In this document: one piece after another, positions 40,566-62,458 of the stretch
Layout: each line of letters starts with the position of its first letter
Position numbering within the stretch: position 1 is the first letter of the stretch
NCBI GenBank assembly: GCA_039588295.1
Contig: JBDHAB010000006.1
Location: forward strand, 18,358-82,357
Reading direction: 5' to 3'
Source: Gemmatimonadota bacterium
GTDB lineage: Bacteria > Gemmatimonadota > Gemmatimonadetes > Gemmatimonadales > GWC2-71-9
DNA: 64,000 nt
Notes under the pieces: model-generated
What the model saw: only the letters and a program-made list of their open reading frames with translations
The model's database searches: none
Told to the model about the DNA's origin: nothing
Position numbers and translations under genes: made by a program

Positions 40566-41938
40566 CGATGACCCGCCGCGGATCGTTTGAGGTACGGGAC
40601 GATCGCGCTGGCAATCACGGCGGCGGCAAAGAAGCCGGCCGCGGCGGGCAGCGACGACTTCTGCTCGCTGGGGCCGCCCGACCGGGTCGTGGCCACGAGT
40701 CTTGGCAGGGAGTCGACGACCACAGGCTCGGGTGCAAGTAGGGGAAACACGCGCCCCAGGAGATTAAGGGCGGTGGTGGCTAGAGACAGGTTGTAGAGTC
40801 GCAGACCCTGGTGTTTCGCAAACAGGTCGTCGGAGAGCCGCTCATACACGAACGGCATGTCGCCATGCCCGTCTCCGTCGGCATCGAACCCCACGTAGTC
40901 GCTCCAGTAGTTCTCAAGCCAACGATTGCGGAGTGCGGTGCCGCCACCTGCCACGGCCACGGGTTGCACGTTGTCAATGAACTGGTTTGCGCGGAAGACG
41001 TTTCCGTGCACCGAAGGAAGCATTGCCACCGCGACATCGTTGTACGCCACGACGTTGTCTTCGAACTGGTTGCTGGCCCGCTCGGACGACGGGGAGTTGT
41101 CCAGCGAGATCCCCACGGCGTTCTTGATCATGAAGTTCCCAACCGCTCGGATATCATCGGAGTCCTTGAAGCCGATGCCGCGTCCAGTCGTGCCTTTCGC
41201 ATGGGCGAACACATTCCCCCGGAAGGTGATGCCCCGCGAGTACATGATGAACGCGCCGACGCGATTGCCGTGAAACGCGTTGTCTTCAAACACATTGTGA
41301 TCGCTGTACATGTAGTGCAGACCGTAGCGACTGTCCTGCACCTGGTTGCCCCGGATCAGCGTACTATCCGAAAACCAGATCACCAGGTCGCGGACGCGGT
41401 CCAAGCGATTGTCAGTGACCGTGCCGTTGTGGCTGTACCAGAAGTGGATCCCGTCACCGCGCAGCGGGAGCGCCAGGTTCTTTCCCTCGATGCTGTTTCG
41501 GCGGACGATCGCATTGTGGCACTGCTTGAGATAGATCCCGAACAGCACATCCTCGAATTGGTTGTCCTCGATGCGCACGGCATCGGCCCCGTCCGCGATG
41601 ATTCCGGAATCTTCCCGAGATTGATCGCTACCTGACCCACGAATCACGAACCCACGGACCGTCGCCGATGCGCGGATCACGATGACGCTGCCTCGCCCAT
41701 CTCCTTCGATCACGGTCCCGGGCTCGCCCACGAGCACCACGGGGCGGTCCAGCAGGAGGTGTTCGTGATACGTGCCGGCTGTGACGACGATGGTGTCGCC
41801 CGGCGCCGCTGCTTGCAGTGCATCCCGAATGGTGGCGTGGTCGCCCTGCGGGCCAACCGTGAGTTGTGAGGCCTGAAGTGCCAGGAGAGCAGCGTAGACG
41901 ATCACGTTACGCCGTCTTCTTGAACCGCCGCCACTCAA
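40562..41938 (-). CDS. nosD: Periplasmic copper-binding parallel-beta-helix protein NosD
   Basis: Repeated NxxxxN beta-helix turns (IRGNQVQDSRYGLHYMYSDHNVFEDNAFHGNRVGAFIMYS...); directly downstream of nosZ/nosB and upstream of nosF/nosY. Confidence 0.85.
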   Translation of the reverse strand: MSGGGSRRRRNVIVYAALLALQASQLTVGPQGDHATIRDALQAAAPGDTIVVTAGTYHEHLLLDRPVVLVGEPGTVIEGDGRGSVIVIRASATVRGFVIRGSGSDQSREDSGIIADGADAVRIEDNQFEDVLFGIYLKQCHNAIVRRNSIEGKNLALPLRGDGIHFWYSHNGTVTDNRLDRVRDLVIWFSDSTLIRGNQVQDSRYGLHYMYSDHNVFEDNAFHGNRVGAFIMYSRGITFRGNVFAHAKGTTGRGIGFKDSDDIRAVGNFMIKNAVGISLDNSPSSERASNQFEDNVVAYNDVAVAMLPSVHGNVFRANQFIDNVQPVAVAGGGTALRNRWLENYWSDYVGFDADGDGHGDMPFVYERLSDDLFAKHQGLRLYNLSLATTALNLLGRVFPLLAPEPVVVDSLPRLVATTRSGGPSEQKSSLPAAAGFFAAAVIASAIVPYLKRSAAGHR

Positions 41939-42620: not shown

Positions 42621-44579
42621 TTATCGTGGCTCGACCAAGAGATAGCCCGCCATCTCGAGATGGAGCGCGGAGCAGAACTCCGTGCAGTAATACGGGTAGA
42701 CGCCCGGCGCGTCGGCAACGAACGCCACCGTCTCCGATTCGCCCGGTTCCAGGCTCAGGTTGATGTTGTATTTTGCGATTCCAAATCCATGGGTGGCGTC
42801 GTGTGCCGTCTCGACACTGGTGATGTGAACGATGACACTGTCGCCCTCACGCACGCGTACCCGCTCGGGATTGAAGTGCGAGCGTATCGCGGTCATGTAG
42901 ACGTGTACGGTGTTGCCTCGACGTTGGATTCGCTCTTGTCCAAGCTGCACCGCGTTGGCGGACGGCCCCATGGTTCCCGGGCTGTATCCGACCTGCGGGT
43001 ACACCCGAAACGGCTGCAGTTTGTCGGTCTTGATCATCTGCGCGTAGTGCGGCTCCCCGATGCCGATGGGCATGTCGTAGAGCAGCTGCATCTTGTCGCC
43101 CGAGATGTCGATGAGCTGGAAGTTCTGCGGCAGGAGCGGCCCCACATCGTTGAAGCGGTCGAGCGACCACTTATCCATCGCGATGAGGTACTTGCCGTCA
43201 GGCGACTTGGTGTCGCCCTCCGCCGTGGCAAGGTGGCCGACGTTGTAGTGCACGCCGATCGTGTCCAGCCACTGGAGCGGATTGAGGCTCCACTTCGTGA
43301 CTTTGGTGTCGAGGAAGATGGACGTGTAGGCGTTCCCCTTGTCGTCGAACTGGGTGTGTAACGGTCCCAGGCCTACCTCGAGCTGACCGTCGAGCACCGA
43401 GGCGAAGTCGAGGATCGGCACACCGTACGCGTCGTTGCCGCTGAAGACCTGATTCTCGATTGCCTGCTGGATCTTCTCCCACGAGTAGACGGTGACGTGG
43501 GGATCGAGCTTCCCGGATACGACGATGAAGCGGCCGTCTGGCGTCACGTCGGCACCGTGTGGGCTCTTGGGTTCCGGAATGAAGAAGAGAATCCCCTCGT
43601 CGATCGCCGTCTGGAGCGGAATCACCCGCTGGCCGCGTGCCATCCGAGTGTTGCCGGCGGTGGCCGCAATCTCTGCCGCCTTCTGCCAGTTGATGACGTG
43701 CATGTAGTCCATGTCATTGGCGGACGCACCGGCCTCGAACGCGGGGTTCCCGCTCTCGATGCCCCCGGTGGCCATTTCGGTATTGAACGAATTGAGGAAC
43801 GCCCATCCGAAGGACGGTCCCTTGCCGGCATCGGAGAGATCGTGCCAGTACGGGGGAAGCTCGATCGAGAACGACGCGGCCTCGTCGATTCGCCCGCGGT
43901 CGCGGTCGAACTTCCACATCGTGATCAGCCCTCGATAGTCCTGCTCGTACCGATCGAGTTCGGCATAGTCGACCCACAGCGGCACCGAGTACTGCGCGCC
44001 CTCGATCACGTACTCGGTGTTGGGTGTGACGAAGGCTCCACCGTGGTTGGTGCCCATGTTCGGATTGGTCACGATCTGCTTGGTCTCGAAGTCCCGCAGA
44101 TCGATGACCGCGATGCGCGGATTGGCCTTGTCGTTGATGAACAGGAACTGACCGTCGTAGTCCGCGTCGGTCTCGGACAGGGCAGGATGGTGCGTATCAC
44201 CCCAGGTGATCTCATGGCCAGCCATGCGTCCGCTCGCCATGAGCTCCTTGTGCTCCTCGGCGCCGTACCCGTATCCCTGCCAAGGCTCCGGTGTGAACGC
44301 CGCGATCACCTTGAGCAGGCGCATGGAGGGAACCCCGATGACCAGGACTTGGCCCGAGTGTCCGCCAGACGAGAACAACATGTACTCGTCCATCTGGCCT
44401 GTCGGCTGATAGGTTTTGAGTGCGGCCACCATGTCCGCGTCGGTCAGGCCTCGATTCCGGGCGATGGAGCCGAGATCGGCGCTGCCTCCCGGCGTGGCGC
44501 AGGATCCCATCCCGGCAACGATGACCACAGTGATGGCTACGGTGAGGGCGAGTCCCCACCCCAATCTCTTGGATTGCAT
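42621..44579 (-). CDS. nosZ: Nitrous-oxide reductase NosZ, clade-II-like (Sec-type lipoprotein signal)
   Basis: Signal peptide with lipobox-like GMGSC (not a Tat motif); beta-propeller CuZ domain with conserved His; C-terminal cupredoxin CuA site HGFGI...YYCTEFCSALHLEM. Confidence 0.9.
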   Translation of the reverse strand: MQSKRLGWGLALTVAITVVIVAGMGSCATPGGSADLGSIARNRGLTDADMVAALKTYQPTGQMDEYMLFSSGGHSGQVLVIGVPSMRLLKVIAAFTPEPWQGYGYGAEEHKELMASGRMAGHEITWGDTHHPALSETDADYDGQFLFINDKANPRIAVIDLRDFETKQIVTNPNMGTNHGGAFVTPNTEYVIEGAQYSVPLWVDYAELDRYEQDYRGLITMWKFDRDRGRIDEAASFSIELPPYWHDLSDAGKGPSFGWAFLNSFNTEMATGGIESGNPAFEAGASANDMDYMHVINWQKAAEIAATAGNTRMARGQRVIPLQTAIDEGILFFIPEPKSPHGADVTPDGRFIVVSGKLDPHVTVYSWEKIQQAIENQVFSGNDAYGVPILDFASVLDGQLEVGLGPLHTQFDDKGNAYTSIFLDTKVTKWSLNPLQWLDTIGVHYNVGHLATAEGDTKSPDGKYLIAMDKWSLDRFNDVGPLLPQNFQLIDISGDKMQLLYDMPIGIGEPHYAQMIKTDKLQPFRVYPQVGYSPGTMGPSANAVQLGQERIQRRGNTVHVYMTAIRSHFNPERVRVREGDSVIVHITSVETAHDATHGFGIAKYNINLSLEPGESETVAFVADAPGVYPYYCTEFCSALHLEMAGYLLVEPR

Positions 44580-51500: not shown

Positions 51501-52460
51501 GACCTCTGGGAGGCTACCAGCTTCGAGCTGGACGCGTTGCAGGCCAGTCCCAAATGCGTCGCGCAGGAGCGTGCGGGGCTGCGCGAACGCCAGGCTCCTC
51601 CGTATTCGATTCCGTTCGTGCCCACACCCACGGCACCTGCGATCATCGAGTCATCGACTAAAACCAAGGTCGCGATTATCCGCGAAGAGGGCTCGAACGG
51701 TGACCGTGAGATGGCGTCTGCGTTCTCTGCGGCCGGCCTCGAGCCATGGGACGTGATGATGTCCGACTTGCTGCGGGGACGGATCGACCTCGAACGGTTC
51801 CGCGGTGCGGTGTTCGTCGGTGGGTTCAGTTTCGCAGATGTCATGGACTCGGCGAAGGGGTGGGCGGGCGTCATTCGCTTCAATCGGGTTCTCTGGCACC
51901 AGTTCCAGGACTTCTACCAGCGGCCCGATACGTTCAGTCTCGGCGTGTGCAACGGCTGCCAGCTCATGGCACTCCTTGGCTGGGTACCGTGGCAGGGGCT
52001 CGATGACGCGCGCCAGCCACGATTCATTCAGAACGCTTCAGGTCGCTTCGAGTCACGGTTTGCGACCGTTGCCATTCAGGAGAGTCCTGCCGTCATGCTC
52101 AAGGGGATGGCGGGTGCCACCCTCGGTGTCTGGGTGGCCCACGGCGAAGGTCGTGCCTATTTCCCGGACACCGAAATTCTCCGCCGCATCGATGTAGAGC
52201 GTCTCGCCCCCGTGCGCTTCGTCGACGACGCCGGACAGGTCACCGAGGCCTATCCCTTCAATCCGAACGGCTCTCCGCTGGGCATCACTGGCCTCTGTTC
52301 ACCGGACGGCCGCCACCTCGTCATGATGCCCCATCCGGAGCGGACATTCCTCAAGTGGCAGTGGGGTTGGATGCCCGAGGCGTGGAAGCGCGATCTCGAG
52401 GCCGCCCCGTGGCTTCAGATGTTCCAGAATGCCCGGGAGTGGTGCGAGGGACGTCAGTAG
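48516..52460 (+). CDS. purL: Phosphoribosylformylglycinamidine synthase, large single-chain form
   Basis: 1314 aa; FGAM-synthase AIR-synthase-like repeats (ETHNFPSGVAPFPGAETGTGGRIRD) and C-terminal glutaminase domain with catalytic GVCNGCQLM. Confidence 0.9.
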   Translation: MTLELQRMSLLHRYRHPGLTDTKKDALLQTARQRVSRSIRDLDTEVCFNLDVTGALSVEEERALTWLLAETFEPDGFGEQSFLRGDGVVVEVGPRMNFTTAWSTNAVAICHACGLTAIRRIERSRRFLILAGDDLDEEKVRALLALVHDRMTECRYPEPLATFATGVEPEPVFAVPVLEQGRGALERINHELGLAFDEWDLDYYTDLFANRIGRNPTNVECFDVAQSNSEHSRHWFFKGRLVIDGAAIPHHLIALIKGTLDANPNNSIIAFRDNSSAIRGYSISTIVPAVTGRPSPFVATEALYHAIFTAETHNFPSGVAPFPGAETGTGGRIRDVHATGRGSLVVAGTAAYCVGNLRIPGYELPWERKDFEYPGNLASPLEIEIQASNGASDYGNKFGEPVLQGYTRAFGLRLPNGERREWIKPIMFSGGIGQIDARHVEKGAPARGMLVVKLGGPAYRIGMGGGAASSMVQGENVAELDFNAVQRGDAEMEQKVNRVIRACVELGDDNPVVSIHDQGAGGNCNVLKEIVSPAGATIEVRAIPLGDDSLSVLEIWGAEYQENDALLIHEDRATAFGALCERENVPFAVVGRVTGDGKIVLRDATDGSTPVNFELEAVLGDMPQKTFVLERLPVRLAPLRLPTALTVADALDRVLRLLTVGSKRFLTTKVDRCVTGLQARQQCCGPLQLTVADVAVIAQSHFGVTGAATAIGEQPIKGLINPAAMARMSVGETLTNLVWANVSALEDVKCSANWMWAAKLPGEGAALYDAAQSLHDMLIHLGIAIDGGKDSLSMAALAPDGHGGSETVKAPGSLVISAYATCPDVTKTVTPDLKRPDSGRLLYVDLGGGHYRLGGSALAQVYEQVGDRSPDVDNPALLERAFNVVQTLIEDGVIVAGHDRSDGGLVTTLLEMAFAGDCGIEVDLPASGATPIGTMFAEELGLVMEVDSADERPVLEAFDRADVPCVSVGSVVRDKHIRIRIGPEIVVDADMRDLRDLWEATSFELDALQASPKCVAQERAGLRERQAPPYSIPFVPTPTAPAIIESSTKTKVAIIREEGSNGDREMASAFSAAGLEPWDVMMSDLLRGRIDLERFRGAVFVGGFSFADVMDSAKGWAGVIRFNRVLWHQFQDFYQRPDTFSLGVCNGCQLMALLGWVPWQGLDDARQPRFIQNASGRFESRFATVAIQESPAVMLKGMAGATLGVWVAHGEGRAYFPDTEILRRIDVERLAPVRFVDDAGQVTEAYPFNPNGSPLGITGLCSPDGRHLVMMPHPERTFLKWQWGWMPEAWKRDLEAAPWLQMFQNAREWCEGRQ

Positions 52461-52600
52461 TCGACCGGCCACGCACAAACGCTTGCCCTGGTTACAGATC
52501 CATCCAACGGAACGGCCGTTGCGGCGAGCGGGATTCCGATCCAATTTATCGTACTTCCCGCGAGCGGATTGGAGCGGGTCACTCATTCTCCGGCAGGCCT

Positions 52601-52801
52601 ATGGACGAGCCAACCCCCTTGATGGGCAGGGTGGTAGGGGGTGAGCGTGTCGCCCGGTGCCAGGCGGCCCTGTTGCGCCTGAGCACCGCGATCGCGGCAG
52701 CGCCACACGAAGACATCTGTCACAGCCAGTCTCCGGCGGATCTGGTCGAAGAAATCCGCGGTCTCGTTGCCGCCGCGACTGCGCGGGAGTCCGCGTCGTG
52801 A
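52601..52801 (+). CDS. Short upstream ORF whose product mimics the N-terminus of the downstream histidine kinase
   Basis: [22 protein letters not shown] versus HK N-terminus [22 protein letters not shown]; its TGA overlaps the HK GTG start (GTGA). Confidence 0.25.
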
Positions 52802-55449
52802 CCGGGAATCGCTCCGGGGCTCCCGTGAACGGCGACGTGGAGCGCCGTGCGCTTCAGCGACGGCAAGCGGCGCTGCTGCGTCTCTCGACGGCCATCGTCG
52901 CGGCGCATGACGAGGCGGAAGTGTATCGCTCGATGGTCCAGGGCCTCCAGGATGAAGCGCTGGGATACAACTTCCTTGGCGTCTTCATCATCGAACCCGC
53001 CACGGGCGACCGGCTGCTCCAAGCCAGTGTCGGCTGGCCGGACGGTCCGCACCATATGCGCGTGCGGCATGGCGAGGGACTCAGTCAACGCGCCATCGAC
53101 GACGGGCAGGTGCACTACACGCCAGACGTGACGCGAGAGGCCGGGTACCTTCCCAGCCTCGCCAGCGGCTCCGAGGTCGACGTCCCGTTGCGGGTCGATG
53201 GGCAAACTATCGGGGTCCTGGTGGTCGAGAGCAACGAGCCCAACGCGTTTGGCGAGGAAGACTTCGAGATCCTGACGGCCGCGGCAAACCAGGCGAGCAT
53301 CGCGATCGGCCGGGCTCGGCTCCTCAGCGCCGAACGGCGGAGGGCTGACGAGCACGAGGCGCTGCTGGATACCATGCGGGACCTCGCCGGGGAGCTCGAG
53401 CTTCCGAAGGTCCTCCAGGCCGTGCTGGAGCGCGCGGTGACGCTGCTCGGCGTGACGGGAGGTGAGGTGGCGATCTACGACGACGACCGAAAAGAACTCG
53501 TTGTCGTGGCGAGCGAACACATCGGCAAGGACTCGACCGGAACGCGATTGGCGCTAGGAGAGGGCGCCATGGGGGCCGTGGCTGAGTCCTTGGAGCCGCT
53601 CATCATTCCGTCGTATCACGAGTGGATGGGTCAGTCGGTGCAGTACGCCGACGTTATGGTGCACTCGGTGATGGCCGCACCACTCCTCATCGGACGGCGG
53701 CTTGTAGGAGCGATTGCCACGGTCCATTCCGATCCAGATCGGGTGTTTGGAGCCGAGGACCTGCGGCTGCTCAATCAGTTCGCGCCCCAGGCCGCGATTG
53801 CCATCGAAAACGCTCGGCTGTTTGCGGCCGAGCGCAAGCGGGCCGAAGAGCAGAAAGCACTGCTGGACACCATGCAGGATCTCGCGGGGGAACTCGAGCT
53901 CTCCAAGGTCTTGCAGGCGGTGCTGGCGCGCGCCGTCACACTGCTCGGCGTGACCGGCGGTGAGGTTGCCATCTACGACGAGGCCACCCAACAGCTGGAG
54001 GTCGTCGCGAGCGAGCAGATCGGTAAGGATTCAACGGGGACCCGGCTCAGGCTGGGTGAGGGAGCCATGGGGGCGGTAGCCGAATCGCTGGAGCCCCTGA
54101 TCATCCCGTCGTATCACGAGTGGTTGGGGCAATCGGCGCAATACGCCGACGTCACGGTCCATTCGGTGATGGCGGCGCCGCTCCTCATTGGGCGTCGCCT
54201 GGTTGGGGCGATCGCGACGGTCCATTCCGATCCCACACGGGTGTTTGGGCCGGAAGACCTGCGATTGTTGCACGTGTTTGCGCCCCAGGCCGGCATCGCG
54301 ATTGAAAACGCGCGATTATACATGGCGGCGCAGCAGCAGAAGCAGTACTTCGAAACGCTGGTGTCGAACAGCCCGGTGGCAATCGTCACGCTGGACCGCG
54401 ACCACAATATCGTGTCCTGCAATCCGGCGTTCGAGACGCTGTTCGGCTACCTGAAGTCCGAGGCGGTTGGCCGCAAACTCGATGAGCTCATCACGACGGA
54501 GTCAACGAAGTCTGAAGCCGTGGCATACACGCGTGAAGCACTCGACCACGCCGTGCATGGCATTGGACGGAGGCGACGTAAGGATCGTTCGCTGGTGGAT
54601 GTGGAGGTCTTGGGTGTTCCGGTGATCGTCGACGGCAAGCGTGTCGGGCTCATGGGGCTCTACCACGACATCAGCGAACTGTCACGTGCCCGTCGCGATG
54701 CAGAAGCGGCGAGTCACGCCAAGAGCCAGTTTCTCGCGAGCATGAGCCACGAGCTCCGCACACCGCTCAACGCGATTATCGGGTATTCCGAGATGCTGCA
54801 GGAAGAGGTCGAGGAAATGGGCCACAAGGAGCTTGGATTCGACCTGCAGAAGATCCACACGGCCGGAAGACATCTCCTTTCCCTCATCAACAATGTGCTC
54901 GACCTCTCGAAGATCGAGGCGGGTAAGATGGATCTCTTCTTGGAAACCTTCGACATCGGCGACATGCTGAACGATGTCGTGACGACGGTCCGGCCGCTGG
55001 TGGACAAGAACCGGAATGAGCTCACGGTTCGCGGCGGGGACGATCTGGGAAGCATGCATGCCGATCTCACAAAGGTCCGTCAGATGCTCCTCAACTTGTT
55101 GTCCAACGCCTGCAAGTTCACCGAAGAGGGAACGATCTTACTGGCGGTCGAGCGAGAACGATCGGCAACCGCCGACGAAGGCATGATGCTCTTCGAGGTG
55201 GCCGATGACGGAATTGGCATGACGCCAGCGCAGATGGACAAGCTCTTCGAGGCGTTTTCTCAGGCTGAGGCGTCCACGACGAGCAAGTACGGCGGCTCGG
55301 GTCTTGGACTGGCGATCACCAGGCGGTTCTGTCACATGATGGGTGGCGATGTCCAGGTGGCGAGCACTCCCGGGCGAGGATCGACGTTCTCCATCAGGTT
55401 GCCGGTGCGGGTCGATGTGTCCGCGGCGGCAGCGGCATTACCGGAGTAA
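52798..55449 (+). CDS. Sensor histidine kinase with three GAF domains, a PAS domain, HisKA and HATPase_c
   Basis: Three repeats of the ...LLDTM(R/Q)[32 protein letters not shown]... GAF core; PAS ([28 protein letters not shown]); H-box [18 protein letters not shown]; G1/G2 boxes ([15 protein letters not shown]). Confidence 0.8.
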
Positions 55450-55466
55450 CCACGGAGGCCGGATCG

Positions 55467-55838
55467 ATGGCGCGCATCCTGTTGGTCGAGGACAACGAGA
55501 TGAACCGCGACATGCTGTCGCGGCGGCTCACCCGCAGAGGCTATGATGTCACCATGGCCGTTGATGGACGTCAGGGCGTTGAGATGGCGCGAAGTGGGGC
55601 GTATGACCTGATTCTCATGGACATGAGCCTTCCGGAGATCGACGGTTGGGAGGCGACACGACGGCTCAGAGCAGCACCCGAGACACAGACTGTTCCCATC
55701 ATCGCTCTGACCGCGCACGCCATGGCCGGCGATCGTGAGAAGGCCATTGAGGCGGGCTGTGACGATTACGATACCAAGCCCATTGAGCTCAAACGGCTGC
55801 TCTTGAAAATCGAGGCCCTGCTCCCGAGAGACGCGTGA
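55467..55838 (+). CDS. Stand-alone response-regulator receiver domain (CheY-like)
   Basis: ILLVEDNEMNRD, DLILMDMSLPEIDG, TAHAM, CDDYDTKP receiver motifs. Confidence 0.85.
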   Translation: MARILLVEDNEMNRDMLSRRLTRRGYDVTMAVDGRQGVEMARSGAYDLILMDMSLPEIDGWEATRRLRAAPETQTVPIIALTAHAMAGDREKAIEAGCDDYDTKPIELKRLLLKIEALLPRDA

Positions 55839-57766
55839 CCGATTTGCGACCGCAGACGATCTCGGATCTCCGGCACGATCTCCGGACGCCCGTGAATCAC
55901 ATCGTGGGCTATGCCGAGATGCTCCTTGAAGATGCCGTCGAGGCGAAGCAGGTGGAACGCCGCCAGGCGCTCGAAGTGGCAATTGGTGCGGCACAGGACG
56001 TGCTGAGCCTCATCAACACGGCGCTTCCGCCATCGCGTGACGAGATTCCGCCGCAGGACATCGTCGGCCTGTACGACTCCCTCCGCGAGCCGCAGGGCCG
56101 TATCCTCGCGTCGATGCAGCATCTTCTCGCGCAAGTGGGGACCGCGGACGACGGTCTTCGCAAGGACATCGCACGGATCATTGCTGCCGCCGAACGCATG
56201 GTCGAGCGCGGCGCGCCCGGTTCGGCAGTGTCCGAGACCGCGCAACCGCACGCGACCCAACCCCAGGAGCCGCCTCCACGGGTTGAGGCGGCAGATTCCA
56301 CGAGCAGTGCGCGTGTGCTCGTTGTAGACGATGTCGACGACAACCGCGAGGTGCTGCGCCGTCGCCTCGAGCGTCAGGGCTACGGAGTCGATTCGGCTGC
56401 GAATGGACGCGAAGCACTCGAGATGGTGGCGGCAGGTGACTATGATCTGATCCTCCTCGACGTACTCATGCCCGAGATCGATGGCTATGGAGTTCTCGGA
56501 TCCCTCAAGGACACTCCAGGAACGCGTGACATACCGGTCATCATGATCTCCGCGCTCGACGATGTGGCGAGTGTCGTGCGGTGTATCGAGCGGGGCGCCG
56601 AGGACTATCTGCCGAAACCGTTCGATCCCGTGTTGCTCCGAGCGCGCATCAGTGCCTGCCTCGAGAAGAAGCGGCTGCGTGATCAGGAGGTGGAATACCT
56701 AGAGCGCGTCCAGCAGGTGATCGAAGCCGCCTCCGCGGTGGAGGCCGGGGAGTATCAGCTCGGCACCTTGGGTGACCTCGCCAACCGTGCGGATGCGTTG
56801 GGGAGGCTCGCGCGCGTGTTCGACGGCATGGCCGTGGAGGTCCGTGCTCGCGAGGAACGGCTCCAAGAGCGTGTGCACGACCTGCGCAGGGAAATCGAGG
56901 CGGCGCGAGTGACGGCCCCCAACGGCCATTCCGTCGATGGGGGGAATCTCAAGACCGGACAGCAGTTCGCTGGAAGGTATGAGATCCTTGCGGTACTGGG
57001 GTCTGGTGGGATGGGGTCCGTCTACCATGCACGCGATGTGGAACTCGGGGACGAGGTCGCTGTCAAGACGCTCCGGCCGGAACTGGTCACCGATGAAACC
57101 CTGATCGAGCGCTTCAAGCTGGAAATCAGGCTCGCCCGCAAGCTGTCGCACCGCAACGTCGTGCGGACGCACGACCTCGGCCAGTGGGCGGGCGTGTACT
57201 ACCTGACGATGGAGCTCGTCGAGGGCATTACCGTCCGGCATCTCATTGACACGCGGGGGCAGCTGGGGGTCTCCGCCTCTCTCGCGATCGGGGCTCAACT
57301 CGCTGAGGCGCTCCAGGTCGCCCACGAGCAAGGTGTGATCCACCGCGACATCAAGCCGCAGAACCTCCTGCTGGACGCCGACGCGGTGCTCAAGGTGATG
57401 GACTTTGGCATCGCGCAGCTGGCCGAACGTACGAGCTCGATTACGGAAACCGGACTCACGGTGGGGACACCGGCGTACATGCCGCCGGAACAGCTGCTTG
57501 CCGAAGGAGTGGACGGGCGGAGCGACCTCTATGCTGCCGGGGTCGTGCTGTACGAATGTCTGACCGGGACGATTCCGTTCGAAGCACCATCGCCGATCGC
57601 ACTCATCGCAAAGGTCTTGAACCAGGAACCCGCGCCACCGGCCGCGCGCAACCCGGATGTGCCGCCGGCGCTCTCGGCTCTCGTGCAGCAGCTTCTCGCA
57701 AAGAAGCCGCAGGACCGGATCCAGTCGGCCGCCGAGCTCGCCTCGCGACTACACGAACTGCACTAG
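55835..57766 (+). CDS. Fusion protein: HisKA-type phosphoacceptor domain (no ATPase domain), receiver domain and Ser/Thr protein kinase
   Basis: ISDLRHDLRTPVNHIVGYAEML (H-box); VLVVDDVDDNREV...DLILLDVLMPEIDG...KP receiver; Hanks kinase GSGGMGSVYHA, VAVK, HRDIKPQNLLL, DFGIAQ, TPAYMPPE. GTGA overlap with the upstream REC gene. Confidence 0.8.
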   Translation: MTDLRPQTISDLRHDLRTPVNHIVGYAEMLLEDAVEAKQVERRQALEVAIGAAQDVLSLINTALPPSRDEIPPQDIVGLYDSLREPQGRILASMQHLLAQVGTADDGLRKDIARIIAAAERMVERGAPGSAVSETAQPHATQPQEPPPRVEAADSTSSARVLVVDDVDDNREVLRRRLERQGYGVDSAANGREALEMVAAGDYDLILLDVLMPEIDGYGVLGSLKDTPGTRDIPVIMISALDDVASVVRCIERGAEDYLPKPFDPVLLRARISACLEKKRLRDQEVEYLERVQQVIEAASAVEAGEYQLGTLGDLANRADALGRLARVFDGMAVEVRAREERLQERVHDLRREIEAARVTAPNGHSVDGGNLKTGQQFAGRYEILAVLGSGGMGSVYHARDVELGDEVAVKTLRPELVTDETLIERFKLEIRLARKLSHRNVVRTHDLGQWAGVYYLTMELVEGITVRHLIDTRGQLGVSASLAIGAQLAEALQVAHEQGVIHRDIKPQNLLLDADAVLKVMDFGIAQLAERTSSITETGLTVGTPAYMPPEQLLAEGVDGRSDLYAAGVVLYECLTGTIPFEAPSPIALIAKVLNQEPAPPAARNPDVPPALSALVQQLLAKKPQDRIQSAAELASRLHELH

Positions 57767-57796
57767 GCTGCGTCCGAACTCGGAGTTCGCCGGCGG

Positions 57797-60193
57797 CTAG
57801 GACCGCGCGATCGGGGCGCCGAGGCAGGTATTGGGAATGCCGAATGCGTCCACCAAGGCCACCGCGTCGGTGCGAACTTCACCGCAGAGCTGGTTCACGA
57901 GCCCCCGGATCGCCTTCGCCTTGTTCGATGCGAGGTACCCGCTCTCCAGAAACCACCCACGGTCGTGTTCGATACGCCAGAGGGCGTAGAGATCGGCCAG
58001 GGATTTGAGTATGGGGCCGAACGATTTGTCCTGGTTTGCCGCGGACGCGATCAGGAACTGCTCGACGATCACTCGTTCGGCGTGGGCGCGCGCCAGGGCG
58101 ACAAGGTGATCCTGGCAGCTGTTGAACGCCGACAGCGAGTCGTGTCCGTCGTCGAACAGGCGCTTGAGTCGTTGCGCCGCCGATGCCAGGAGGCGCTGTT
58201 CACGGTACGTGAATGCGCCGAGTTGGAAGTCCGGGCCGCGCAGGTGGTCCTCGTCGGTCAGCCGGGTAATGATCGGGTTCAACTCCGTAACCGTCGTCGC
58301 GGTTCGCCGCGCCAGGAACTTGAGGACGCCGAAGAACTTGAGCTCGCCGAATTGGTGCCGATATTCGGTGAGCAGGCCCTTCGCAACGAGCTGGAGTAGG
58401 ACGGTGTTGTCGCCCTCGAACGTGGTGAACACATCGGTATCGGCCTTGAGGTGCGCGAAGCGATTGACCGTGAGGTACCCCTGGCCCCCGCATGCCTCGC
58501 GGCACGTCTGAAGGGTATCGATCGTCTGCCAGGTGCTGATCGCCTTGATCCCGGCCGCCAGCGCTTCCACCTCCCGCGCGTCTTCGTCTGTCCGATCGAG
58601 GAACCGCCGCACCAGGTACTTGACGGCGAAGTCGAGCGCATAGGCGGCTGCGAGGCGTGGCATGAGCCGACGCTGGTGGGTCAGGTAGTCGAGGATTACC
58701 TGTTCCGGTTCGCCGGCACGGCCGAATTGCCGACGCTCCGCGCCGTAGCGGATCGCGATCGCGAGCCCCGATTTGGCAGCGCTCAGCGCCGCCGCTGCGA
58801 CGCTGATCCGCCCACCGACGAGGGATCCGAGCATGGTGAAGAACCTTCGAGAGGGGTCGGCGATCGGGCTGTGGTATTCGCCGCCTGGGCTCACGTCCGC
58901 GAAGCGATTCAGCAGGTTCTCGCGCGGGATGCGCACGTGGTCGAACCAGATCCGCCCATTGTCGACGCCGTTGAGTCCGAGCTTTTCCCCGCAGTCCTCG
59001 ATTCGCACTCCCGGCAGTTGGTCGCCGTCTTCCGAGCGGATGGGCACGACGAACGCGTGTACCCCGTGGTGCTCCTCGTCTATTTCGAGTTGGGCGAACA
59101 CCGTGGCGAGACGACCATGGAGCGCTGCATTCCCAATGTAGTCCTTCCGCGCCTCGTCGGTCGGTGTGTGGATCACGAACTCGTCGCTGCCGATGTCGAA
59201 CCGCGCGACGGTTTCGACATCGCGCACGTTGGAGCCGTGACCCGTCTCAGTCATGGCGAAACAGCCTGGCAGGTCGAGGGTTCCGGCGGCGTGGAGGTAG
59301 CGATCGTGGTGGTCACGCGTGCCCAGCTGGTGGATACTGCCGCCGAACAACCCGAACTGGACGCCGAACTTGACGACGAGGCTGAGGTCAAAGAAGGCGA
59401 GTTGCTCGAACGTGGCGATGAACGACCCGAGGTCGTCTCTCCCGCCGTACGCCGCTGGGTAAGCGGTGGCGCCGAGGCTGTGGCCGGCAAGTGTGCGGCA
59501 CCACTCCAGGACGCGCTCGCGGTAGGTTGCCTTGTCGAGTCCGTACGCATAGCGAAAGGAAGCCTTCCCTAGCAGAGAACGGACCGCCTGCCGCGCCTCT
59601 CCATATTCCCCATCCAATACTCCCGTCAAGCCTGCCACATCGAATCGGCGGGGCTCCTCCGGGGGCACGACGCGCTCCGGCGCCGCGGCAACCAGCTCCT
59701 GTGAGGCCTCGGTCCCGATCACGCCCATGGCACGCTCAATCTCGGCGAGGGCGTGTTGCGCCTCCTCCGTCTCCCAATCGCCAAGATCTTCTGCGCCCTG
59801 GCGTGCCAGCTCGATCCCCAACTCTGCCAGCGATCGCCGCCGCGCACTTGGCAGGCGTCGGGCGAGTCGTCGAATCGTCCCTAAGAGGTGCTGGAGCTCT
59901 CGCGCCGTCGGCGGCGACTGAGGGTCCAGCCAGGCACGGATGACGCGTTGCACATCGGCGCCGAGCCAGCCCTGTTTGGCCACGATCTCCGAGATCACCT
60001 GCATCTCGCTCATGGTGAGCGTGCAGTCCGCCCATGCCACGTAGATCAGGGGAAGCAGGGGGAGGAGAGCGGGGTCAATCCGATCCGGCATGCGTGGTGG
60101 GTGTTCCTGCGCCATGTGCGTGCTCCGTTCCGTCATCGCCGTGGAGATAGCCCGGTCACCTGGCCTACGATACGCGTGGACCGTATTGTACAC
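57797..60193 (-). CDS. Acyl-CoA dehydrogenase/oxidase-family flavoprotein with ~250-aa N-terminal TerB/DjlA-N-like extension (start may be at an internal Met, 60115-60136)
   Basis: ACAD core MTETGHGSNVRDVETVA...; C-terminal four-helix domain; the N-terminal extension has no ACAD similarity. Confidence 0.7.
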   Translation of the reverse strand: MYNTVHAYRRPGDRAISTAMTERSTHMAQEHPPRMPDRIDPALLPLLPLIYVAWADCTLTMSEMQVISEIVAKQGWLGADVQRVIRAWLDPQSPPTARELQHLLGTIRRLARRLPSARRRSLAELGIELARQGAEDLGDWETEEAQHALAEIERAMGVIGTEASQELVAAAPERVVPPEEPRRFDVAGLTGVLDGEYGEARQAVRSLLGKASFRYAYGLDKATYRERVLEWCRTLAGHSLGATAYPAAYGGRDDLGSFIATFEQLAFFDLSLVVKFGVQFGLFGGSIHQLGTRDHHDRYLHAAGTLDLPGCFAMTETGHGSNVRDVETVARFDIGSDEFVIHTPTDEARKDYIGNAALHGRLATVFAQLEIDEEHHGVHAFVVPIRSEDGDQLPGVRIEDCGEKLGLNGVDNGRIWFDHVRIPRENLLNRFADVSPGGEYHSPIADPSRRFFTMLGSLVGGRISVAAAALSAAKSGLAIAIRYGAERRQFGRAGEPEQVILDYLTHQRRLMPRLAAAYALDFAVKYLVRRFLDRTDEDAREVEALAAGIKAISTWQTIDTLQTCREACGGQGYLTVNRFAHLKADTDVFTTFEGDNTVLLQLVAKGLLTEYRHQFGELKFFGVLKFLARRTATTVTELNPIITRLTDEDHLRGPDFQLGAFTYREQRLLASAAQRLKRLFDDGHDSLSAFNSCQDHLVALARAHAERVIVEQFLIASAANQDKSFGPILKSLADLYALWRIEHDRGWFLESGYLASNKAKAIRGLVNQLCGEVRTDAVALVDAFGIPNTCLGAPIARS

Positions 60194-60220
60194 CGTCGAT
60201 CGATTCGGAGACTATGGCAC

Positions 60221-62458
60221 GTGCCCGAGTTGTTGCAACAGGTCAAGCTTGCCCTCGCCAGCCGTTATGCTGTTGAGCGGGCCCTCGGCCAGGGGGGGAT
60301 GGCGAGCGTGTTTCTCGCCGAAGACTTGAAGCACGGGCGGCAGGTGGCCGTCAAGGTCATCCGACCGGAACTCACGCTGACCATCGGGATGGACCGGTTT
60401 CTACGGGAGATCGGCATCGCCTCGCGTCTCAGCCACCCGCACATCCTTCCCGTGTACGATTCCGGTGAGGCGTCCCGGCTCATGTATTACGTGATGCCCT
60501 ACGTTGCCGGCGAGTCCCTCCGCATGCTGCTGGACCGGGTTACGCGGCTGGAGGTGGATGAGGCGGTACAGATCGCGTCGGAGGTGGCTGGGGCGTTGGC
60601 CCACGCGCATGCGCACCACGTGATTCATCGCGACATCAAACCGGCGAACATTCTTCTCTCAGACGGGCATGCGGTCGTCGTGGATTTCGGCGTTGCACGG
60701 GCGATCGGCGATGTGGGGAGAGAGTCGATTACGGCACCGGGCATCGCCGTGGGTACGCCGTCGTACATGAGTCCCGAGCAGGCGAGTGGTGAGCGGCAGC
60801 TCGACGGTCGCAGTGACATCTACTCGCTTGGCTGTGTGCTCTTTGAGATGCTGGTCGGCGAGCCACCGTATACGGGCCCCAGCACTCACGCGGTGATTGC
60901 GAAGTGCTTCTCGCAGCCGACGCCGTCCGCCCGTGCGGAGCGCCGCAAAGTACCGATCCACGTCGACCGCGCGATTGCCCGAGCGCTCGCGAAGGTTCCG
61001 GCCGAGCGCTTCTCGACCGCGACCGAGTTCGCCGACGCACTGTCCGATCCGGGTGCCCTGCCGCCACCGCCGGCTCCGACGTCCATCGCGGTCCTGCCGT
61101 TCGTCAACCTACAGGGCGATCAGGAAGACGACTACCTGAGCGACGGCATCACTGAAGAGATCATCAGCGCTCTGAGCAAGCTGCAAGGCCTGCGGGTAGC
61201 AGCCCGGACCTCCTCGTTCGCCTATAAGGGCACGTCTGAGAGCATACCCCGCATCGGCACCGAGCTCGGGGTTGCTGCGGTGCTGGACGGCACCGTTCGC
61301 CGTTCGGGTGACCGTCTGCGCGTGTCCGCGCAGCTCACGAACGTGAGCGAAGGATATCCGCTCTGGGCCGAGCAGTTTGATCGGGAGATGGAGGATGTAT
61401 TTGCGATCCAGGACGAGATCGCCGGGGCGATTGTCGCGACCCTGAAGGGGCGCCTGGCGGCCGAGCGGCGCGAGCGCATCGTGAAACGCTACACGGAGAA
61501 TGTCGAGGCGTACGAGCTGTACCTCAAGGGGCGTTATGTCGAGAAGACTCGGCGGCCGGCGGGGTTTGCCAAGGGAATCGAGTACTTCGAGCAAGCGATC
61601 GCCAAGGACCCCCATTACGCCCTCGCGCATGCAGGACTGGCCGACTCGCACACCCTGCTTGCGTGGTACCGGTTCCTCGCTCCCCACGAGGCGTTTCCCA
61701 AAGCGAACATCGCTGCGATGCGTGCGCTCGATATCGACGAGCTTCTACCCGAGGCGCATACGGCGCAGGCTCAGGTCAGATTCTACTACGAGTGGGATTG
61801 GAATGGTGCGGAGCGGGCATTCTCCCGCGCCCTGGAGCTGAACCCGAACGACGCGACGGCCCTCCACCTGTATGCGGAGTACCTCGCGTCCCAGCGCCGC
61901 CTGAACGAGGCATTGGCCCACGTGCAGCGCGGTCACATGCTGGAGCCACTGTCGCCGACGATCAACGCCGGCCTGGGGTGGATGCACTACTTCTGTCGGG
62001 ATTATGGACAGGCGATTGAGCACTTTCGCAGCACGCTGGAGCTGGATCCCGAGTACGTCTTTCTGCACTGGTTTCTCGGCCAATGCTACCTGTTGAGCGG
62101 GGAGTATGATACGGCCGTCGACACGCTGCGCCGTGGGCTGGAGGTGAGCGACGGCCATCCCGGCATGGCGGCGTATCTGTCGTACGCCTGCGGTCGGGCC
62201 GGCGACCGCGCGGAGGCCTCAGTGTTGCTGGATTCCCTCGTGCAGCAGGCCGTCGAGCACTATGTCCCGAGTGATTACCTCGCCGTTGCGCATGTGGGTC
62301 TCGGACAACTGGACGACGCGATTCGCTGGCTGGAGCGCGCATGCCGGGAGCGCGCACTGCATCTCGTGTTTCTCGATGTCGACCCGCTGTTCGACGAGCT
62401 CCGAGCGGACGAGCGCTTCACCCGAATCCTGCAGAACCTTGGACTGAAGCGAGGCTAG
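60221..62458 (+). CDS. Ser/Thr protein kinase + TolB-N-like domain + TPR repeats (paralogue of 33934-36138)
   Basis: GQGGMASVFLA, VAVK, HRDIKPANILL, DFGVARA, TPSYMSPE; then IAVLPFVNLQGDQEDDYLSDGITEEIISALSK...; TPR helices. GTG start at 60221, because the track start 59888 overlaps the divergent ACAD gene. Confidence 0.85.
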   Translation: MPELLQQVKLALASRYAVERALGQGGMASVFLAEDLKHGRQVAVKVIRPELTLTIGMDRFLREIGIASRLSHPHILPVYDSGEASRLMYYVMPYVAGESLRMLLDRVTRLEVDEAVQIASEVAGALAHAHAHHVIHRDIKPANILLSDGHAVVVDFGVARAIGDVGRESITAPGIAVGTPSYMSPEQASGERQLDGRSDIYSLGCVLFEMLVGEPPYTGPSTHAVIAKCFSQPTPSARAERRKVPIHVDRAIARALAKVPAERFSTATEFADALSDPGALPPPPAPTSIAVLPFVNLQGDQEDDYLSDGITEEIISALSKLQGLRVAARTSSFAYKGTSESIPRIGTELGVAAVLDGTVRRSGDRLRVSAQLTNVSEGYPLWAEQFDREMEDVFAIQDEIAGAIVATLKGRLAAERRERIVKRYTENVEAYELYLKGRYVEKTRRPAGFAKGIEYFEQAIAKDPHYALAHAGLADSHTLLAWYRFLAPHEAFPKANIAAMRALDIDELLPEAHTAQAQVRFYYEWDWNGAERAFSRALELNPNDATALHLYAEYLASQRRLNEALAHVQRGHMLEPLSPTINAGLGWMHYFCRDYGQAIEHFRSTLELDPEYVFLHWFLGQCYLLSGEYDTAVDTLRRGLEVSDGHPGMAAYLSYACGRAGDRAEASVLLDSLVQQAVEHYVPSDYLAVAHVGLGQLDDAIRWLERACRERALHLVFLDVDPLFDELRADERFTRILQNLGLKRG

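Follow-up and report, generated by a model that had tools for sequence, protein, structure and literature searches.

This locus raises the question of whether a His-Asp phosphorelay controls a eukaryotic-like Ser/Thr kinase, as the initial annotation suggested from the layout of three consecutive genes. We examined these genes within the window (the whole 64,000-nucleotide stretch of Gemmatimonadota DNA analyzed here) and compared them with related loci. On sequence evidence, they appear to form a conserved three-gene Gemmatimonadota operon in which a His-Asp phosphorelay is wired directly onto a eukaryote-type Ser/Thr kinase. The connection appears to run through a HAMP domain and through an unusual helical module that carries a histidine and is duplicated internally.

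Gene order, sensor kinase and stand-alone receiver

The genes, with the features of the histidine kinase, are located as follows.

52601..52801, + strand: 66-aa ORF, probable N-terminal remnant of an upstream GAF-kinase paralogue that has been lost (similarity to N-termini of tandem kinases)
52798..55449, + strand: sensor histidine kinase, 883 aa, GAF x3-PAS-HisKA-HATPase_c (Pfam)
53362..54357, + strand: tandem GAF2/GAF3 repeat in the kinase, two 498-nt units (self-comparison)
54349-54672, + strand: kinase PAS (Pfam, converted to window coordinates)
54718-54924, + strand: kinase HisKA (Pfam, converted to window coordinates)
54748-54750, + strand: predicted phospho-His 651 of the kinase (HisKA domain)
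55063-55410, + strand: kinase HATPase_c (Pfam, converted to window coordinates)
55467..55838, + strand: REC1, stand-alone receiver, 123 aa, proposed intermediate receiver of the relay (Response_reg, 98.2 bits, Pfam)
55835..57766, + strand: fusion protein, 643 aa, with tandem DHp module, tether, REC2, HAMP and Ser/Thr kinase (Pfam, alignments)

The three ORFs thus follow each other as kinase, REC1 and fusion. Between the kinase stop codon and REC1 lie 17 nt, with GGAGG 7 nt upstream of the REC1 ATG, and the GTG start of the fusion overlaps the REC1 stop as GTGA (55835-55838), in agreement with the translational coupling initially proposed. This 4-nt overlap was documented in about 5-6 loci, including the window, L085, L086, L087 and the P0126 place. 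The order kinase(s)-REC1-fusion was kept in L001-L007, L009, L085, L088 and the P0126 place, and related loci carry two to three tandem kinases each. Among the 150 best representatives at 50% identity, 7 have the full architecture, which, as far as these sequences go, is confined to a narrow family whose members are Gemmatimonadota wherever a source name is given. Gene order is conserved across this phylum, and all domains named in the initial annotation are there, intact and conserved.

Indeed, the kinase is a cytoplasmic protein without a fused receiver, and its description as a triple-GAF and PAS histidine kinase was borne out by three GAF stretches together with PAS (54.7 bits), HisKA (73.6 bits) and HATPase_c (100 bits). 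The best NCBIfam matches to its core were the hybrid kinases LuxQ, TorS, BarA and ArcB, all under their cut-offs. With the kinase nearest the receiver in L002, L003, L006 and L009 it shares 72-78% identity. The GAF2 and GAF3 units, with a period of 166 aa, share 81% identity at the protein level and 75% at the DNA level, and some kinase orthologues apparently have one GAF fewer.

The range under study begins at 52601 with the ATG of the 66-aa ORF, whose TGA stop shares nucleotides with the GTG start codon of the kinase gene. Residues 11-42 of this ORF can be aligned with the N-terminal end of the first tandem kinase, at 71% over 28 aa in L002 and 81% over 26 aa in L004, as compared to 50% over 36 aa for the N-terminus of the window kinase itself. 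The GTG at 52798 is the plausible kinase start; a longer ORF from 52657 was rejected, its Arg-rich N-terminus looking non-coding.

As described in the initial annotation, the gene after the kinase encodes one Response_reg domain. REC1 contains E8/D9, D52 (55620-55622), T82, Y101 and K104, and its full-length orthologues preserve the catalytic motifs and the alpha1 helix. Conservation among orthologues is higher for REC1 (68-86% identity) than for the fusion (52-62%). The closest solved relatives of REC1 are PleD D1, a hybrid-kinase receiver (7c1j) and DivK (89 bits).

Histidine module, receiver and kinase domain of the fusion

The layout read for the fusion, a HisKA region without an ATP-binding (CA) domain followed by a receiver and a complete Hanks kinase, was confirmed by Pfam with the H-box intact. 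Its parts are the following.

55847..56038, + strand: DHp repeat 1, residues 5-68, H-box LRHDLRTPVNH (HisKA match, similarity to kinase DHp)
55874-55876, + strand: H14 of DHp repeat 1 (checked in the window)
56048..56218, + strand: DHp repeat 2, residues 72-128, degenerate hairpin without histidine (alignment to repeat 1)
56219..56305, + strand: variable low-complexity tether between module and REC2, residues 129-157 (pLDDT, orthologue variation)
56306..56680, + strand: REC2, residues 158-282, proposed terminal receiver (Response_reg, 101 bits at residues 161-272, Pfam)
56690..56908, + strand: divergent HAMP domain and following helix, residues 286-358 (hhalign, Pfam at the equivalent place in orthologues)
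56978..57727, + strand: Hanks-type Ser/Thr kinase domain, RD type, residues 382-631 (Pkinase, 172.8 bits, Pfam)

The HisKA match (residues 7-65) scored 49.9 bits when the N-terminus was searched by itself and 40.1 bits within the full-length protein, above the Pfam cut-off of 26.9 bits, and no HATPase_c match was found anywhere in the protein by Pfam. Repeat 1 is 39% identical to the DHp of the operon kinase over 66 ungapped residues (E = 4e-14), and its best solved sequence relatives include RetS and a related 'Histidine kinase' entry (7n0e). In repeat 2, L79-Y80-D81-S82-L83-R84-E85-P86 aligns with L12-R13-H14-D15-L16-R17-T18-P19 of repeat 1; homology between the repeats is moderate (P about 2e-4, the observed score being reached by 1 of 300 shuffles). 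The CA-less HisKA region is, by these alignments, a tandem duplication of a DHp hairpin, with the histidine (H14) in the first copy only. The checked H-box and REC2 residues are invariant in 63 orthologues, among them H14, R17, T18, P19 and N21 of a module that is otherwise only 36-52% identical, which speaks against the H-box being a degenerate remnant.

AF2 folds the hairpin pair with high confidence as a single-chain four-helix bundle, in a monomer prediction that also leaves room for a homodimer. A two-domain model of module and REC2 reached a pTM of 0.80 despite the disordered tether, implying a confident predicted docking of the fusion's own REC2 on the bundle. Beyond the H-box hairpin come the degenerate second DHp hairpin and then a disordered tether, with pLDDT below 50 at residues 128-146 in one model and at 128-142 and 148-155 in the model of module and REC2; its length and sequence differ among orthologues.

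REC2 contains D165/D166, D209 (56459-56461), S239, Y258 and K261. The segment after it, initially described as a coiled linker of about 100 aa, is not merely a coiled coil. When compared by hhalign with the HAMP domains of four TM-dCache-HAMP-STK paralogues, which score 47-56 bits with Pfam HAMP, it gave a probability of 91.6% (P = 8e-7). With Pfam HAMP (cut-off of 25 bits), the corresponding segment of orthologue P0007 scored 28.6 bits, that of P0125 22.3 bits and the window copy 12.5 bits. On this homology, the linker consists of a divergent HAMP domain followed by a helix. The kinase domain has the catalytic Lys and Asp read by the initial annotation (K411, D505, D523) within a complete set of K411, E430, H503-R504-D505, N510 and D523-F524-G525, all found in the window, and its catalytic residues are invariant in 24 orthologues. 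Its activation loop is rich in Thr and Ser (ERTSSITETGLTVGTP), and its best NCBIfam match was the PknB/Stk1 kinase domain (324.9 bits, under the 450-bit cut-off).

A proposed phosphorelay and its alternatives

On balance, we think it probable that these genes encode a multi-step phosphorelay with a Hanks-type Ser/Thr kinase as output. Each of the four phospho-sites, with its catalytic context, is intact and does not vary among orthologues. The GAF/PAS kinase, or the two or three tandem paralogues in relatives, would autophosphorylate on His651 and pass the phosphoryl group to D52 of REC1, which would act as a hybrid-kinase receiver detached from its kinase. Since the module has no ATP-binding domain, H14 could be charged only by back-transfer from a phospho-receiver; REC1~P would therefore be its donor, and H14~P would in turn phosphorylate D209 of the flexibly tethered REC2 in cis. 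The state of REC2 would then be transmitted through the divergent HAMP and helix to the Ser/Thr kinase domain, probably by altering dimer geometry and activation-loop autophosphorylation, and would switch phosphorylation of its presumed substrates on or off.

The distribution of H14 favours this relay. A receiver, stand-alone or fused to a kinase, lies directly upstream in 13 of 13 loci with an intact histidine (the window, L001-L007, L009, L085, L087, L088 and the P0126 place). In L086, the kinase ahead of the fusion gene carries the receiver itself and so is a true hybrid kinase; its stop overlaps the fusion start, and the fusion has kept the histidine and lost T18 and P19. The histidine was lost in two lineages, P0127/P0286 (L083) and P0135 (L084), and these fusion genes are orphans with neither kinase nor receiver nearby, suggesting that H14 is tied to the kinase/receiver pair. 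Both lineages retain the helical module and a phosphorylatable REC2, so the module must have a role beyond phosphotransfer. REC-HAMP-STK proteins without the histidine module also exist (P0125, P0134), and L089 combines such a protein with a hybrid kinase and a stand-alone receiver, indicating that a stand-alone receiver goes with these kinases also where a second histidine is missing. The His-less and the module-less contexts are represented by two loci each.

The earlier proposal of His-Asp-His-Asp control is thus upheld in part: conserved gene order, H14 co-occurrence, the orphans and the L086 hybrid speak for it, whereas the L089 arrangement and coinciding docking features leave room for direct transfer from kinase to REC2. 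Repeat 1 and the kinase DHp have N, G and Y in common at H+7, H+11 and H+12, positions that we take to be specificity-determining, and given their overall identity both could dock the same receiver. REC1 and REC2 are 41% identical with a common alpha1 (N-R-D/E-x-L-x-R-R-L), so that the kinase might phosphorylate REC2 directly. In such a branched system, possible but in our view rather unlikely, REC1 would be a sink or modulator and the module a cis dock and phosphatase for REC2~P or REC1~P. This would suit L089, the AF2 placement of REC2 on the module and the His-less orphans, whose REC2 must be charged directly by some kinase. The pattern H14-D15-x-x-T18, with its T18 invariant in the 63 orthologues, presumably corresponds to the HisKA phosphatase motif, and the module may act as a phosphatase. 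However, Thr/Asn matters more than the histidine for HisKA phosphatase activity, and it is the histidine that disappears with the partner genes. Moreover, the phosphoryl group of the L086 hybrid would end on its own receiver and need the histidine to move on, and conservation of REC1 above that of the fusion would be unusual for a mere sink.

Other readings dispense with phosphotransfer through the module. REC1~P could bind it as a pseudo-DHp without chemistry, binding alone altering Ser/Thr kinase activity, as in a DivL/DivK-like allosteric switch. The DHp of DivL is degenerate, like this module without ATP-binding domain; DivK is a close solved relative of REC1, and His-less lineages retain the module. 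Yet pure binding needs no invariant H14, R17, T18 and P19, it leaves the joint loss of histidine, REC1 and kinase unexplained, and the full set of REC2 catalytic residues suggests that REC2 is itself phosphorylated, making such a switch quite improbable. The resemblance of the first hairpin to the kinase DHp and to RetS and 7n0e would also fit a RetS-like interference, in which this hairpin would pair with the GAF-kinase DHp as a heterodimer and block or redirect that kinase. We hold this to be highly improbable: the dimerisation face is predicted to be occupied in cis by the second hairpin, the gene context gives no call for kinase inhibition, and REC1 and REC2 would be left unexplained. Hardly tenable, and already disfavoured, is a decaying H-box region in what is simply a REC-HAMP-STK response regulator. 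Module-less proteins (P0125, P0134) and histidine loss in some lineages agree with it, but not the invariant H-box in a divergent module, the HisKA score, the high AF2 confidence or the strict co-occurrence with partner genes.

Comparison with known signalling systems

The proposed phosphorelay resembles several known ones. In the sporulation relay (KinA-E - Spo0F - Spo0B - Spo0A), where multiple kinases converge on one single-domain receiver, and in the relay CckA - ChpT - CtrA, a His-Asp-His-Asp chain uses a second histidine on a DHp-type hairpin unable to autophosphorylate. In Spo0B and ChpT, which are homodimers, a CA-like alpha/beta domain is retained, whereas the module described here has a second degenerate hairpin instead, is fused to the terminal regulator and would have an enzymatic output rather than DNA binding. 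The yeast Sln1 - Ypd1 - Ssk1 relay, also of the His-Asp-His-Asp kind, controls the Ssk2/Ssk22 MAPKKK and likewise ends with a receiver governing a Hanks-type kinase. It is eukaryotic, with a true HPt and a receiver that binds the kinase in trans, while here receiver and kinase are one polypeptide connected through a HAMP domain.

Like the HPt domains of ArcB, Ypd1 and ShpA, the module is predicted to be a small all-helical shuttle with one histidine between receivers, modelled as a single-chain four-helix bundle. The earlier term 'HPt-like' holds as a functional analogy and not as homology, as Pfam found no Hpt match in the fusion at E values up to 10 and the H-box is of the HisKA type in a duplicated DHp. 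The two show no relationship in sequence, and any real resemblance is convergent.

A precedent for the same relay logic is the alphaproteobacterial general stress response relay Pak-SdrG-PhyT-PhyR, to which the MrrA hub is related (PMC5964349). There, several sensor kinases feed one single-domain receiver, and a kinase-like protein both passes the phosphoryl group by way of a conserved histidine to the terminal receiver and complexes the terminal regulator (PMC5898713). By the same analogy, our module probably holds unphosphorylated REC2 as PhyT holds PhyR. PhyT, however, is a separate membrane protein, and its relay ends in a sigma-factor partner switch. The histidine module described here is a soluble one of the HisKA family, internally duplicated and fused to REC2, and the output is a Ser/Thr kinase.

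Cyanobacterial HstK-type dual kinases (cbSTKIII family; PMC2176072) also combine a Hanks kinase with two-component parts (GAF, HisKA) in one protein. Their order and logic are reversed, with an N-terminal Ser/Thr kinase before GAF-HisKA-ATPase, no receiver in between and HisKA within a complete histidine kinase. Finally, TM-dCache-HAMP-STK receptor kinases of Gemmatimonadota (L010-L017) are 46-53% identical to the fusion from about residue 292 to the end, sharing a homologous HAMP-plus-kinase module. They take their input from a dCache-like periplasmic sensor flanked by two membrane helices, while the fusion has a phosphorylatable receiver for this purpose, so that its HAMP follows a soluble domain instead of a membrane helix.

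Gene string and encoded domains

All three open reading frames were located where the initial annotation had placed them, and a small ORF precedes them. The features of the string are as follows:

52601-52801 (+), 66-aa ORF just 5' of the kinase gene
52798-55449 (+), GAF/PAS histidine kinase (phospho-site H651)
53362-53859 and 53860-54357 (+), GAF2 and GAF3 of the kinase
55467-55838 (+), stand-alone receiver, REC1 (phospho-site D52)
55835-57766 (+), 643-aa fusion protein with, in order, a tandem DHp module (repeat 1, residues 5-68, with H14; repeat 2, residues 72-128), a tether, the receiver REC2 (D209), a HAMP linker and a Ser/Thr kinase (STK)

The kinase gene has a plausible GTG start at 52798; a longer version from 52657 was rejected because the extra part is Arg-rich and non-coding in appearance. 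Pfam analysis recovered the domains that had been proposed for this protein, namely three GAF stretches, a PAS domain, HisKA (73.6 bits) and HATPase_c (100 bits), and H651, like the catalytic residues of REC1 and of the fusion, was verified in the window sequence. The REC1 gene begins 17 nt past the kinase stop codon and is preceded by GGAGG. Its product contains Response_reg alone (98.2 bits), as expected of a single-domain receiver, and the match to profile PF00072 is accompanied by E8/D9, D52, T82 and K104. The GTG of the fusion gene overlaps the TGA of REC1 as GTGA (55835-55838), in agreement with the translational coupling suggested previously. A promoter and terminator scan of 52300-58000 gave no signal above shuffle expectation. 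The gene 3' of the fusion encodes a convergent acyl-CoA oxidase, and neighbour genes provided no candidate substrate, the downstream neighbours varying among the loci examined.

In the fusion protein, HisKA (PF00512) covers residues 7-65, scoring 40.1 bits when the entire protein is scanned and 49.9 bits when the N-terminus is taken alone (curated cut-off of 26.9 bits). H14 was invariant among 63 orthologues, which speaks against the H-box region being a degenerate remnant. HATPase_c was absent from the fusion in the Pfam analysis, so there is no complete transmitter and the description of a HisKA without CA domain was correct. The receiver reported to follow it (Response_reg, residues 161-272, 101 bits) belongs to PF00072 and has D165/D166, D209, S239 and K261, which are invariant in the 63 orthologues. 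The claim of a complete Hanks kinase was also borne out, with Pkinase (PF00069) at residues 382-631 (172.8 bits) and the catalytic Lys and Asp in place (K411, HRD 503-505, DFG 523-525). The full set of residues G389/G391, K411, E430, H503-R504-D505, N510 and D523-F524-G525 was invariant in 24 orthologues, and the domain is of the RD type with Thr/Ser residues within the activation loop.

We compared the string with loci of other genomes (L-numbered) and with related proteins (P-numbered). The order kinase(s)-REC1-fusion was found with tblastn, using the window proteins, in L001-L007 and L009, and REC1 also lies directly upstream of the fusion in L088 and at the place of P0126. The GAF kinases are often in tandem, with two in L002, L003 and L004, three in L009, and three followed by REC1 and the fusion in L085. 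The 66-aa ORF ends in a TGA that overlaps the kinase GTG. Over residues 11-42 it matches the N-terminus of the leading GAF kinase of the tandem sets in L002 (71%) and L004 (81%). Since relatives have two to three tandem kinases and the window has one, this ORF is probably what is left of a deleted kinase paralogue. Within the remaining kinase, GAF2 and GAF3 form a tandem repeat of 166-aa units with 81% protein identity and 75% DNA identity. Some orthologues (e.g. that of L003) seem to be one GAF short, so the number of GAF domains varies within the kinase family. In L088 (L088:2-853), the kinase ends in two consecutive receivers, giving the string kinase-REC-REC, REC1, fusion.

The N-terminal module and the linker of the fusion

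Helix 3 of the module (L79-Y80-D81-S82-L83-R84-E85-P86) aligns with the H-box of repeat 1 (L12-R13-H14-D15-L16-R17-T18-P19), and hhalign placed the family profile for residues 5-68 collinearly with that for residues 72-128 over 52-58 columns (P of 1.7e-4 to 5.7e-4). In a column-shuffle control, the observed value of 23.5 compared with a mean of 10.3 (sd 2.3), and 1 of 300 shuffles reached it. On these alignments we have moderate confidence that the two repeats are homologous. Based on the repeat alignment and the shuffle control, a degenerate, His-less second hairpin would therefore occupy the site of the CA domain. The AF2 model of residues 1-160 consists of an all-helical part followed by disorder, with residues 72-128 forming a second helical hairpin and residues 129-157 disordered. 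In the AF2 monomer prediction, which is compatible with a homodimer as well, repeat 2 closes a four-helix bundle in cis, and we infer from this model that the DHp bundle may be closed in this way.

With its H-box hairpin and no ATP-binding domain, the module resembles the Spo0B/ChpT-type histidine phosphotransferases. These carry a C-terminal CA-like alpha/beta domain, and no such domain was present in the AF2 model of residues 1-160. The module had been called HPt-like; any such likeness would be one of topology and role and not of descent, as the Hpt profile was unmatched and HisKA was the sole family found for residues 1-159 at E values up to 10. Meaningful matches in a PDB sequence search with the N-terminus were DHp domains (E of 7e-4 or weaker). 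The top matches of that search, designed helical repeat proteins aligned with residues 80-134, were put down to helical composition bias.

The segment between REC2 and the STK, initially described as a coiled linker, is most probably a divergent HAMP domain, judged by homology to the HAMPs of paralogues. Its family profile aligned with the HAMP of four paralogues with a probability of 91.6% (hhalign, P = 8e-7, 46 columns), and the alignment spans helix 1, the connector and helix 2. Relative to the curated cut-off of 25 bits for Pfam HAMP (PF00672), scores were 47-56 bits for the four transmembrane-sensor paralogues scanned, 28.6 bits at the equivalent position of orthologue P0007, 22.3 bits for the related protein P0125 and 12.5 bits (E = 0.19) for the window copy. 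The paralogues, found in L010-L017, have two membrane helices, a dCache-like sensor, a HAMP domain and a Ser/Thr kinase; L011:596-2710 and L016:6990-8990 are examples of such receptor STKs, with a periplasmic dCache-like domain and HAMP directly before the kinase. Their match to the fusion starts at residue 292-320. Given this homology, REC2 would feed a HAMP-STK unit that is driven by membrane sensors elsewhere in the phylum. In Gemmatimonadota, the coupling of Hanks kinases to HAMP seems to be a recurring theme.

Conservation and the probable phosphoryl route

A protein search with the fusion retrieved over 120 clusters with 60-68% identity, and almost all of them have precomputed HisKA, Response_reg and Pkinase matches. 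Every source name given among those clusters was Gemmatimonadota, and a genome scan agreed. When 1.84 billion representatives were searched exhaustively with HMMER, the full module-REC-linker-STK layout was present in 7 of the best 150 matches, indicating a family that is real and conserved but narrow; REC-linker-STK was present in 4 further proteins among these 150. The "2-stretch" HMMER matches were discarded as receiver-plus-kinase proteins after a domain survey identified nearly all of them as multi-kinase proteins. REC1 orthologues were 68-86% identical, the full-length ones keeping the alpha1 helix and catalytic motifs, whereas the fusion was only 52-62% identical in the same loci.

State of the fusion module and upstream context in the compared loci
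Loci; module; upstream context
Window, L001-L007, L009, L085, L087, L088, place of P0126 (13 loci); His intact; stand-alone receiver directly upstream
L086 (P0129); T18 and P19 lost but His retained; kinase of hybrid type with the receiver fused to it, stop overlapping the fusion start
L083 (P0127/P0286 cluster); VRQQLRAS, His lost; orphan, kinase and receiver absent nearby
L084 (P0135); ARLRARRR, His lost; orphan, kinase and receiver absent nearby
L081/L082 (P0134); module absent; orphan
L089 (P0125); module absent; hybrid dCache kinase and stand-alone receiver

The string, conserved and translationally coupled, encodes four phosphorylatable sites in fitting domains, kinase H651, REC1 D52 and fusion H14 and D209. 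The DHp of the kinase aligns with repeat 1 over 66 residues without gaps, at 39% identity (E = 4e-14), and the two have in common N at H+7, G at H+11 and Y at H+12, which we take to be partner-specificity positions in the light of the EnvZ specificity-rewiring work. REC1 and REC2 are 41% identical and have a common alpha1 motif. With these shared features REC1 could bind to each of the two histidine helices, which a relay would require; by the same similarities, the kinase could equally reach REC2 directly.

Judging from the sequences, the likeliest mechanism, and one we hold to be somewhat probable, is a relay in which the phosphoryl group would pass from H651 of the kinase to D52 of REC1, then to H14 of the fusion and on to D209, the state of REC2 acting through HAMP on the Ser/Thr kinase domain. 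By comparison with PknB-like kinases, this control would operate through dimer geometry and trans-autophosphorylation. By analogy, sequestration of REC2 and a phosphatase activity may be further roles of the module; such logic has been shown experimentally for Pak-SdrG-PhyT-PhyR (PMC5898713).

The main rival is a branched system in which the module would be a dock or phosphatase. In its favour, REC2 can evidently be served where a second histidine is lacking, as in L089 and the His-less orphans, and the kinase/repeat 1 and REC1/REC2 similarities permit direct transfer from the kinase to REC2. The His-less lineages (L083:1295-3268 and L084:3125-5131) retain the four-helix module and an intact, phosphorylatable REC2. 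We consider the branched system possible, if rather unlikely. The association of the histidine with an upstream receiver, in a comparison where the His-less and module-less contexts come from two loci each, argues for chemistry at H14 rather than for a role limited to structure or binding. As the histidine goes with the upstream receiver, a DivL/DivK-like binding switch appears improbable, and we give even less credit to a RetS-like heterodimerisation of the fusion with the kinase. That the module is a functionless remnant is hardly credible, H14 being invariant among the orthologues.

PMC9981736 offers no decisive rule by which intermediate and terminal receivers could be told apart from sequence, and the aromatic switch residue, which we tried as such a test, did not discriminate, being kept in both REC1 and REC2. 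The Gemmatimonadaceae locus L089 (L089:1602-6151) encodes a dCache-HAMP kinase of hybrid type, a stand-alone receiver and a module-less REC-HAMP-STK, which together have three receivers and one histidine.

Comparison with known systems and other genes in the window

The logic of the proposed relay is classical, like that of Spo0F/Spo0B, ChpT and PhyT. The yeast relay Sln1-Ypd1-Ssk1-Ssk2 likewise governs a Hanks kinase, although it does so in trans and via a true HPt. Cyanobacterial dual kinases join Hanks and two-component domains (PMC2176072), but in an order that is the reverse of the fusion and with no receiver. In two 2025 reviews (PMC12471899, PMC12189002), TCS/STK links appear almost only as STKs phosphorylating response regulators. 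The operon suggests wiring in the opposite direction, in which a phosphorelay commands a Ser/Thr kinase within one polypeptide, conserved across a poorly studied phylum. Our literature search found no characterised receiver-controlled Hanks kinase, while bare REC-kinase architectures may figure in Galperin's 2006 response-regulator classification, and no tandem-DHp phosphotransferase. Three features appear to be new, namely a duplicated DHp within a single chain, the junction of REC with HAMP and a Ser/Thr kinase as the output.

Tentatively, the module might be a natural single-chain DHp with one histidine, in which a His-less copy replaces the partner subunit, joined to the receiver that it targets and driving a Hanks kinase via REC-HAMP. 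If true, histidine phosphotransfer would have a third structural solution in addition to HPt domains and the dimers of Spo0B and ChpT, and this would be the first described bacterial phosphorelay with a Ser/Thr kinase output, as far as the literature search shows. Should the mechanism hold, it would offer a tractable soluble system for receiver switching of a Hanks kinase through HAMP, and a natural DHp bundle closed within a single chain, with bearing on the evolution of phosphotransfer modules and on specificity engineering. Several paralogous GAF kinases would feed a single receiver, much as happens in sporulation, with protein Ser/Thr phosphorylation as the endpoint instead of transcription.

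Other features of the window were also recorded:

33934-36138 (+), Hanks kinase with C-terminal TPR array
59888-62458 (+), Hanks kinase with C-terminal TPR array
40562-41938 (-), NosD-like beta-helix protein
42621-44579 (-), nitrous-oxide-reductase propeller-repeat protein
7560-11420 (+) and 13234-16515 (+), two very large right-handed beta-helix proteins (one with Big_2) flanking a PD40-repeat protein

A TPR kinase is also located near the fusion gene in L002. The NosD-like and propeller-repeat proteins point to a nos gene cluster, roughly 10 kb upstream of the three-gene string and apparently unrelated to it. The beta-helix and PD40 group is probably a cluster of cell-surface or secreted proteins.
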